This document shows, piece after piece, positions 1 to 3,000 of a stretch of 27,160 nt of DNA. Origin of the DNA: a virus (taxonomy: Duplodnaviria > Heunggongvirae > Uroviricota > Caudoviricetes); the IMG/VR virus record IMGVR_UViG_2521172589_000011; one strand, written 5' to 3'. The position numbers were made by a program. Numbering within the stretch: the first letter of the stretch is position 1; each line of letters opens with the position of its first letter.

Positions 1-3000
1 ATGCTCACCGTTAAGCAGATTGAAGCAGCAAAGCCGAAAGAAAAACCATACCGCCTACTCGATGGTAATGGCCTGTACCTTTATGTCCCTGTGTCAGGGA
101 AAAAGGTATGGCAGCTTCGCTACAAGATTGACGGTAAGGAGAAAATCCTGACCGTAGGAAAATATCCGCTAATGACTTTGCAGGAGGCAAGGGATAAAGC
201 ATGGACTGCGAGGAAAGACATCTCGGTTGGCATCGATCCGGTAAAAGCGAAAAAGGCTTCGTCTAACAACAATTCCTTTAGTGCGATTTACAAGGAATGG
301 TACGAGCACAAGAAGCAAGTCTGGTCAGTAGGCTATGCAACTGAACTTGCAAAAATGTTTGATGACGACATTTTACCTATCATCGGCGGCCTTGAAATTC
401 AGGATATTGAGCCGATGCAACTGCTGGAAGTAATCCGCAGATTTGAAGATCGCGGTGCAATGGAGCGAGCCAACAAAGCCCGCAGAAGATGCGGCGAGGT
501 TTTCCGTTACGCTATTGTCACTGGTAGGGCTAAATATAACCCGGCGCCTGACCTTGCTGACGCCATGAAGGGATACCGCAAGAAGAACTTCCCGTTTCTT
601 CCTGCAGACCAGATCCCTGCATTCAACAAAGCACTGGCAACATTTTCAGGAAGTATCGTATCGCTCATTGCCACCAAGGTTTTACGCTATACAGCCCTCA
701 GAACAAAAGAGCTTCGTTCCATGCTATGGAAGAACGTCGATTTTGAAAACAGGATTATCACCATTGACGCCAGTGTGATGAAGGGACGCAAAATTCATGT
801 GGTCCCGATGTCAGACCAGGTGGTTGAACTTCTCACTACGCTAAGCTCAATCACCAAACCAGTATCAGAGTTTGTTTTTGCCGGGCGCAACGATAAGAAG
901 AAGCCGATCTGCGAGAACGCGGTGCTGCTTGTGATCAAACAAATCGGCTATGAGGGTCTGGAAAGCGGTCACGGATTCAGGCATGAATTCAGCACGATTA
1001 TGAACGAGCACGAATGGCCTGCTGACGCTATTGAAGTGCAACTGGCACATGCCAACGGCGGATCTGTGCGCGGGATTTACAACCATGCACAGTATCTCGA
1101 TAAGCGCAGAGAAATGATGCAGTGGTGGGCGGACTGGCTTGATGGTTTAATAGTTTAATAGTTTAATAGTTTAATAGTTTAATAGTTTCAGTCCAATATT
1201 ACATTTTAGCATTGCAAACAAATATTCACTCACGCAACGGTTAATTAAGAAGCAACCAAGTAATCTTAGTGATGATGTTTCAGAATGATGAGTAACAAAT
1301 CGTTAAATCAAGTATTCGATGCTAGTGTTTTGAGCCTCTTTAGCTGATATTATTGTCGTTTACTCTACTTTACATTGAATTGTTTGATGACCATGACTAC
1401 ACGATATAGATCTGATATTGATGGCCTACGAGCACTTGCTGTCCTTCTTGTTTTTGCTTATCACCTCAAGCTATCACCTTTTAGTGGCGGCTTTATTGGT
1501 GTTGATGTCTTCTTCGTTATCTCTGGATTTCTTATCACTGGTATTGTTATAAAAGCTATTGACAGAAATAGTTTCTCATTATCTGACTTCTTTAACAGAA
1601 GAATAAAGAGAATAGTACCAAATGTTTTTTTAGTTGCATCTTGTACAATTATAGCCGGATGGTTCATCCTATTACCAAAGGATTATTCTTCACTTATTAG
1701 TAGCTATTTGTACACATCCATCTACGCTGCTAACTTTTATTTTTGGAAAGCGACAGGAGCTTATTTTTCATCTTCTGCAGATGAGATGCCACTACTTCAT
1801 ATGTGGTCATTGGCCGTAGAGGAGCAATATTACTTTATATGGCCAATTATTATTTTACTTGCACTAAAGCACATTAAGACAAAACATATTGGTGTTATTA
1901 CATTAATAATTTCAGTATTTGCCTTTATATTCTCTGAAATAATGGCAAGGCGTTACGCTGGGTTCTCATATTATATGCCAATCACACGCTCTGGAGGCTT
2001 GCTTCTAGGGTCCGCCCTAGCATTAATGAATAGAGATTATAAAAAAATAAGGGAGTTTAATTCTTACATAGTAGTAATATTAGGAACTATTCTTATTGCG
2101 GCATCATCTGTAACAGTGAACAAATTATCAGTGTTTCCTGGGTTAAATTCTGCGATACCATCATTTGGTGCAATGTTAGTAATTTTAGGGGGGAACGGGT
2201 TTAATGGCAATGTGATATCAAAAATCTATGGTTCAAAAATAATATCCACAATTGGATTGCTATCATTCTCAATATATCTTTGGCACTGGCCGTTGATTGC
2301 ATATTCAACATATATGGGAGTGATAGACTCACTTGAAGTCAAATTGACAATAGTACTCCTGACATTTATTTTATCATATTTAAGTTTAAAATTCATTGAG
2401 AATCCAATAAGAAAATCAAAAATATCATTTGTTCGTTCTTTTATTTTTATTAACACATTTTTTATTGCAACTGCTTTTATTGTGTTGTTTATGTCAACTA
2501 TAACAAATGGCTTCAAATTCAGAAGTGTAGGAGAAAATCATAATTTAGATGTGAAATATGCTGGAATGGACGAAGGATGGTGTCATGTTAGCGCAGAAGG
2601 AAAAAATGGCATAACTTTTAATGAGTCTATGGCCAAATGTTATATAGGTGATAAAACATCAAATAAAGAAGCTCTATATATTGGTGATTCCAATGCAGGG
2701 CATTACGGTCCATTTGTAGATGAAATGGGTCGCAGGGCTGGAATAAAAATAAATCAACTGAGCACTTCATCTTGTTACCCAACAAGAGAAGTTAAGAAAG
2801 ATGGAGAAAACCCTGATGTCTGCATAAACTTCAGAAGAATAATTAATGAAAAAATAAAATCTGGTAAATATGATACAATTATCATTGCTAATAGATGGGC
2901 AAGGGATGATAAGAATATGTCATATAAAAACGCTAACTTCACCGAGTTCCTATCATTTTACTCATCTCACGCAAAGAAAGTTATTATTATGGATCAAATG

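Follow-up and report, generated by a model that had tools for sequence, protein, structure and literature searches.

An octanucleotide tandem repeat of variable copy number at the joint between an IntS-type integrase gene and a putative O-antigen conversion cargo in a prophage of Escherichia coli O104:H4

The window analysed here, the whole 27,160-nucleotide (nt) stretch of DNA in IMG/VR virus record IMGVR_UViG_2521172589_000011, is 100% identical to chromosomes of the Escherichia coli O104:H4 outbreak lineage and is an argW-inserted P22/Sf6-like prophage remnant of that serotype. Our subject is a perfect tandem repeat of an 8-base-pair (bp) unit, which overlaps the stop codon of the integrase gene (int) and stands at the boundary between int and an AT-rich cargo module. 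In strain 55989, a close relative, the same int lies directly after yfdC and tRNA-Arg (argW) and carries the RefSeq label "prophage integrase IntS". The features around the repeat are as follows.

1-1158, plus strand: intS-type tyrosine integrase of 385 amino acids (aa), from the list of open reading frames (ORFs), with Pfam Arm-DNA-bind_3, Phage_int_M and Phage_integrase domains
1075-1144, plus strand: 3' end of int, which travels as a dead remnant with the array and the cargo (from 1075 at bioA-ybhB, from about 1098-1101 at dacD-sbmC)
1144/1145, no strand: mosaic joint, the end of homology with other IntS-type int genes, after CTTGATG (BLAST end points and junction sequences)
1145-1188, no strand: octanucleotide variable-number tandem repeat (VNTR), (GTTTAATA)5 plus GTTT, 44 nt (Tandem Repeats Finder, sequence reading, shuffles and copy numbers in relatives)
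1189-1386, plus strand: AT-rich untranslated spacer from the array to the acyltransferase start, identical in all alleles
1345-1353, plus strand: candidate extended -10 element TGaTATTAT for the acyltransferase, picked out by eye from the sequence and not by a scanner
1387-3297, plus strand: cargo, a membrane acyltransferase (fusion of AT3 and SGNH domains, Pfam PF01757 and PF19040), putative O-antigen O-acetylase, with a guanine-plus-cytosine (GC) content of about 33%
3368-5347, minus strand: P22-type tailspike (Pfam Head_binding), convergent with the acyltransferase

Tandem Repeats Finder reported a period of 8, 5.5 copies, 100% matches and no indels for the consensus GTTTAATA at 1145-1188, and direct reading of the sequence gave five full units followed by GTTT, so that head-to-tail copies of one short unit, as expected of a VNTR, are present. 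The perfect octamer repeat described in the initial annotation was thereby confirmed, with the correction that the array holds 5.5 copies and not 5. It is the sole perfect tandem array that the program found in the 27-kb window. A 24-nt array pattern, with up to three mismatches allowed, matched the window at a single site, the array itself, and gave 0.00 matches in 100 dinucleotide-preserving shuffles, so the array is not a product of chance. Its plus strand is without any C, and because 8 is not a multiple of 3, TAA or TAG stops fall in all three plus-strand frames, as had been noted initially for this boundary with the AT-rich cargo. The minus-strand complement, TATTAAAC, contains TAA and closes the three remaining frames, giving stops in six of six. 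The GC content drops from about 0.50 to about 0.33 at the start of the array.

Copy number was compared across 13 complete loci from relatives (27 E. coli genomes with two IMG/VR contigs and a single metagenome contig). Representatives of the E. coli genomes were retrieved and their units counted, and pattern scans found two homologous IMG/VR contigs and two metagenome contigs. Sequence downstream of 1145 occurred in only 24 of 5,426 complete E. coli genomes, those with the O104-type cargo. The alleles, by chromosomal context, were as follows.

argW, full int: TOK-001, 3.5 copies
argW, full int: 55989, NCCP15648 and NCCP13905, 4.5 copies
argW, full int: 15 Shiga toxin-positive (Stx+) O104:H4 genomes, 100% identical over 501 nt, 5.5 copies
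argW, full int: IMG/VR contig L084, 7.5 copies
bioA-ybhB, 70-nt int remnant from window position 1075: A11, 12.5 copies
bioA-ybhB, 70-nt int remnant from window position 1075: L086 and L102, 5.5 copies
dacD-sbmC, int remnant of about 44 nt: MRE162-UK and MRE162-FRA, 13.5 copies
dacD-sbmC, int remnant of about 44 nt: MRE162-NOR, 5.5 copies
dacD-sbmC, int remnant of about 44 nt: NCTC9104, 9.5 copies
context not assignable, contig ending inside the array: metagenome contig L101 (ONZV01001086.1), at least 7.5 copies

All arrays were perfect and the alleles differed by whole units, between flanks that were conserved: the 44 nt upstream of the array were identical in all alleles, and over 1,812 nt downstream the 3.5-, 4.5-, 5.5-, 7.5-, 9.5- and 13.5-copy alleles differed from one another at 0-1 sites. 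Taken over 1.8-2.4 kb of downstream sequence, most lineages showed differences at 0-4 sites. Copy number therefore varies among relatives, from 3.5 to 13.5, and is not the invariant character that would have spoken against a slippage-prone locus. The combination of near-identical flanks and variable copy number means that change in the array far outpaces point substitution, as is characteristic of slipped-strand mispairing. No allele below 3.5 copies occurred among the 13 complete loci, and a search with the 3' flank alone, aimed at ancestral alleles with 0-2 copies, turned up only those with 5.5, 7.5 and at least 7.5. The end of one metagenome contig within the array indicates that in some samples the array is long enough to break short-read assemblies.

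The position of the array was examined by a BLAST search with window positions 800-1500. The search matched 2,398 E. coli records, and in all except about two dozen the match ended at query position 345/346, corresponding to window position 1144/1145. The same end point was shared by 82 phage records, including Sf6, HK620 and CUS-3 and even Klebsiella and Erwinia phage integrases of 74% identity. After CTTGATG, the int genes of K-12 IntS, CUS-3 and HK620 continue with AGAAGGTAGAGTGA, with minor base differences, and encode EKVE and a stop, while that of Sf6 ends in EKVR; the O104 prophage int has the array in place of AGAAGGTAGAGTGA and ends in GLIV. All of these integrases are 385 aa long. 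An abrupt end of homology shared among otherwise near-identical modules, as expected of a phage mosaic joint, was thus found, with the fall in GC content at the same point. Because the array starts exactly where the homology with other IntS-type int genes ends, we regard it as the mark of the joint. Judged from these alignments, the AT-rich cargo is joined to int exactly at the start of the array, just past the last conserved integrase residue, and the suggestion in the initial annotation that the repeat might be a recombination scar is well borne out. The array was missing from all int relatives with other cargo, and is thus no fixed part of the int 3' end in the family.

For the integrase protein itself, the array supplies the last four codons and the stop (1145-1158). 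The gene ends GAT GGT TTA ATA GTT TAA (D, G, L, I, V, stop), of which G, L, I, V and the stop are supplied by the G at 1144 together with unit 1 and six bases of unit 2, in agreement with the initial statement that the first two copies encode the last residues and the stop. With the stop codon in unit 2, every allele of two or more units gives the same terminus, DWLDGLIV, and since all observed alleles have at least 3.5 copies, the protein is the same in each of them. Only a collapse to 1.5 units would lengthen it, by 19 aa. The Pfam catalytic domain ends at residue 365, and the tail that follows WAD(W/Y)(L/I)D is variable in the family (EKVE, EKVR, EKVS, GRAVQ, GNPHH and GLIV), so that the GLIV tail is probably a tolerated by-product of the joint.

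The block from the int 3' remnant through the array and the acyltransferase to the tailspike (window positions 1075-5347) was seen in three chromosomal contexts, at argW with a full intS, at bioA-ybhB, which is the lambda attachment region, and at dacD-sbmC. From these contexts it follows that the cargo has moved at least twice onto P22-like phages with other integration modules, carrying with it 44-70 nt of dead intS. Unlike the joint at the array, these two later transfers broke inside int, at 1075 and at about 1100. Where int is reduced to a dead remnant of 44-70 nt, the array is still present and reaches its greatest length, and its persistence at such remnants shows that it is not maintained for the sake of int. 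Beyond these loci the octamer array had no homologous counterpart at other cargo boundaries. A search for (GTTTAATA)3 in one genome per species gave 69 matches, all of them unrelated AT-rich repeats in Bacteroidota and other taxa and none with matching flanks, and of the 18 array matches in viral contigs only two were homologous, the rest being unrelated (giant-virus contigs and others).

Toward the cargo, 198 nt separate the end of the array from the acyltransferase ATG (1387), and about 160 nt separate it from the sole plausible -10 element. The longest ORF that runs into the acyltransferase opens at 1375, leaving the array outside the cargo ORF. A consensus sigma-70 scan of 1000-1500, which needs a -35 element, found no promoter-like site there, and no terminator was found there either. 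A promoter inside the array was considered and rejected, as the scanner reported none and the best hexamers in the unit (TTTAAT, TAGTTT and, on the minus strand, TAAACT) lacked a critical base or a usable -35 at a spacing of 16-18 nt. A terminator or other RNA structure was rejected as well, with nothing found at 1000-1500 and no Rfam match at the array; the transcript of 1100-1400 was less structured than its shuffles (z = +2.0). Compared by eye with operators of PhoP, PmrA, OmpR, Fis, IHF and OxyR/Dam, the unit showed no fit. The spacer between the array and the acyltransferase also holds a tiny ORF of 7 aa at 1272-1295 on the plus strand (ATG ATG TTT CAG AAT GAT GAG TAA), which is probably meaningless.

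We consider the array to be a slippage-prone, essentially non-coding and largely neutral spacer at a recombination joint, and would give this reading a probability of roughly 0.6. The AT-rich cargo module, with its O-antigen acyltransferase and O104-specific tailspike, would have been joined by recombination to an IntS-type integrase gene at its 3' end, at the cost of the final 14 nt of int. As every frame of the array contains a stop, the integrase ends four codons later, in GLIV instead of EKVE. Whole 8-bp units would then be gained and lost by slipped-strand mispairing during replication, with the stop in the second unit buffering the integrase against such changes, and the length of the array would affect nothing but the spacer that separates int, or the dead remnant of it, from the upstream region proper to the acyltransferase. 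Most probably, array length has little or no phenotypic consequence.

Several observations weigh against this reading. We infer near-neutrality from an absence of evidence for an effect. All 13 of the 13 complete loci have at least 3.5 copies, and when the cargo passed, twice and independently, to other phage backbones, the array was kept with it, a retention which may reflect selection rather than shared ancestry. In addition, the gene downstream of the array is surface-modifying, and the genomic slot is the one that the proven neuO contingency locus occupies in CUS-3 (PMC3046976). For the slippage component, the agreement of all 15 Stx+ O104:H4 assemblies at 5.5 copies means that the slippage rate at that length is modest and not extreme. 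The sole difference within a strain was found among the MRE162 clones, which descend from one 1949 isolate and were sequenced as hybrid short- and long-read assemblies (PMC10652920); counted in these assemblies and not in reads, the clones from the one stock have 13.5, 13.5 and 5.5 copies, and the shorter array of the NOR clone relative to UK and FRA could be an assembly collapse.

That the copy-number differences as a whole are sequencing or assembly artefacts on a fixed array we consider very improbable. The metagenome contig that breaks inside the array and the hybrid pipeline used for MRE162 would fit such an explanation, but the arrays are 28-108 bp long and thus shorter than most reads, 15 independent O104:H4 assemblies on different platforms concur at 5.5 copies and three others at 4.5, and the arrays are perfect and differ by whole units only. 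Still less credible is a contingency locus acting on the integrase, in which slippage would alter the C-terminus of the protein, as the initial annotation proposed, and hence its integration or excision activity. The overlap of the array with the last four int codons and the stop is what recommends this idea. We rejected it on the reading frame and the observed alleles, which run from 3.5 to 13.5 copies where two units already suffice for an unchanged protein; the affected tip moreover varies naturally in the family, and the array persists at its greatest length beside an int that is only a dead remnant.

Two further explanations concern the cargo. In one, the array acts on the acyltransferase as a promoter-distal rheostat or phase-variation element which tunes O104 acetylation and susceptibility to O104 phages, with unit number setting the length and helical phase of an AT-rich tract (the twist per unit is about 274 degrees, and four units come to about three turns) and thereby altering DNA shape or the binding of H-NS or another nucleoid protein. 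Such tuning of expression by promoter-distal repeat tracts has precedents in the TAAA tract of Neisseria nadA and the poly-T rheostat of Helicobacter sabA, whose effects and binding partners have been demonstrated and which are no more than roughly 100 bp from the promoter. Like these tracts, the O104 array is an AT-rich repeat upstream of, and outside, the core promoter of a surface-related gene; unlike them, it stands about 160 bp from a candidate promoter element and any effect it has is putative. Its hypervariability, its place upstream of a surface-modifying gene on the same strand, its constant company with the acyltransferase in three chromosomal contexts, the lack of alleles below 3.5 copies and the parallel with the neuO repeat in the same slot between int, cargo and tailspike all speak for a rheostat. 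Its distance from the start codon and from the only plausible -10, and the absence of a promoter-like hexamer pair within it, speak against one, and because only the 44-nt int remnant is conserved upstream across contexts, a spacing effect between flanking operators is unlikely. On balance, we regard a rheostat as possible but unlikely. In the other explanation, which we find improbable, the array works as a DNA element regardless of unit number, either as a binding or nucleation site for H-NS, Fis or IHF or as a portable all-frame stop or insulator cassette that lets the cargo land in genes. The extreme AT-richness with TpA steps at the edge of a 33% GC island, the stops in all six frames and the retention with the cargo after transfers are compatible with such a function, but linkage explains the retention equally well, the 8-bp period matches by eye no known dimeric operator spacing, the motif is without other copies in the window, and the octamer arrays of other taxa are unrelated.

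Among the nearest known counterparts is the poly-psi VNTR of neuO in the CUS-3 prophage, a "mobile contingency locus" of E. coli K1 that governs O-acetylation of sialic acid (PMC3046976). CUS-3, like the O104 prophage, is P22-like and sits at argW, the DNA of its int is about 97.7% identical over the 345 nt of the 3' part that were compared, and its cargo occupies the same slot between int and tailspike. In both prophages the cargo is an O-acetyltransferase for the polysaccharide that the tailspike recognises, by predicted function in the case of O104, and in both a perfect non-triplet tandem repeat varies in copy number. The neuO repeat, however, is the heptamer AAGACTC inside the 5' coding region, present in 2-93 copies and switching translation on and off, whereas the O104 octamer lies outside the cargo ORF, where no on/off logic based on reading frame is possible, and no heptanucleotide just after the start codon of a beta-helix O-acetyltransferase is involved. 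The enzymes and their arrangement differ as well, NeuO being a left-handed beta-helix enzyme encoded on the strand opposite to int, and the O104 cargo an AT3-SGNH enzyme with the array 198 nt upstream. By sequence, then, the array is a VNTR, and it resembles neuO in genomic setting, but it lies outside both positions in which a contingency locus would be sought. It is not within a regulated ORF, given that its six frames are closed, that the ATG is 198 nt away and that the integrase is unchanged, nor is it in the spacer between the -35 and -10 elements of a core promoter, the candidate -10 being about 160 nt downstream. The neighbouring gene does qualify as surface- or antigen-modifying by predicted function (its AT3 and SGNH domains and its similarity to phage O-antigen acetylases). 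Of the slipped-strand contingency locus offered initially as an explanation, the slippage-prone part accordingly stands, with 3.5-13.5 copies between identical flanks, and the functional part lacks support, with the array outside the cargo ORF and lacking any promoter-like site.

A bolder version of the regulatory explanation would make the array a second, mechanistically distinct "mobile contingency" device of argW-type P22-like prophages, in which unit number grades or switches the acyltransferase through a non-coding upstream tract. We consider this a long shot, somewhat less likely than a rheostat as such and somewhat more so than an element indifferent to copy number. If it were true, O-antigen acetylation, phage susceptibility and antigenicity would vary within lysogen populations, those of the 2011 outbreak lineage among them, with O-acetylation of the sialic-acid-containing O104/K9 polysaccharide as the target. 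If unit number does tune the acetylase, the idea of a mobile contingency locus would extend, by a different mechanism, from the K1 capsule to the sialylated O-antigen of an epidemic pathogen.

The array may be useful irrespective of function. Like many of the VNTRs used in multiple-locus VNTR analysis of E. coli, which have units of 6-18 bp and often lie in prophages or between genes, it is a short perfect repeat whose copy number varies between close strains while the flanks stay constant, and slipped-strand mispairing is the presumed mechanism in both; it differs from those loci in being confined to the 24 genomes noted above. Literature searches on the octamer, MRE162 and O104 VNTRs yielded no description of the locus, nor of its use in typing, so that the array is apparently an undescribed hypervariable marker, specific to prophages with the O104-type tailspike and acetylase module. 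With 55989 at 4.5 copies and the Stx+ O104:H4 outbreak clade at 5.5, it could be used to type strains finely, and it also gives the exact position of the joint at which O-antigen conversion cargo is swapped onto IntS-type integrases, right after the last conserved integrase residue. In this it is comparable to the module joints or "boundary sequences" annotated in lambdoid and P22-like phages such as Sf6 and HK620, as it likewise sits where conserved int meets exchangeable O-antigen conversion cargo. Boundary sequences, however, are short conserved stretches common to several phages, whereas the O104 array is a unique tandem repeat found with one cargo only.

The cargo genes themselves have been noticed before. 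With O-antigen acetylases of Salmonella P22-like phages, e.g. g341c and BTP1 GtrC, the acyltransferase shares about 33% identity. Scholl et al. (PMC3303846) built a pyocin with the tailspike from a prophage remnant carried by the strain of the German outbreak, which killed O104 and K9 strains specifically, and reported a gene for a putative O-antigen acetylase adjoining that tailspike; the repeat is not mentioned in that paper. Their tailspike is probably the ORF at 3368-5347, whose gene arrangement fits. The tailspike is itself mosaic. In A11 and NCTC9104 its match to the window goes no further than 3594, that of L086 matches 4038-5362 at just 82% identity with nothing in between, and that of MRE162 matches to 3988, where the retrieved locus ends.

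The remainder of the window is a P22-like late region identified with PHROGs and Rfam, with ant, sar RNA, an Arc/Mnt-like repressor, ejection proteins, needle, portal, coat and terminase, and a transposase at the end. The sar RNA (Rfam match of 63.7 bits, 6328-6393, plus strand) is antisense to the 5' end of the Ant anti-repressor gene (5448-6392, minus strand), and together with the Arc/Mnt-like repressor nearby (6805-7056, plus strand) these genes are a P22-type immI region kept in the prophage remnant. About 360 nt past the small-terminase gene (21042-21482) comes the transposase ORF (21847-22350, minus strand, phrog_720), with a small ORF at 21485-21727 between them, and the match of the small-terminase ORF covers only positions 132-275 of the 319 in the profile. 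The position of the transposase and the partial profile match fit a published description of the outbreak prophage as a remnant that bears a deletion (PMC3303846). Finally, an imperfect 18-bp tandem repeat (2.7 copies, 77% matches) occurs at 9798-9846, where the 3' end of the gene for a 488-aa ejection protein (9737-11203, minus strand) overlaps an ORF of 114 aa (9715-10059, minus strand).

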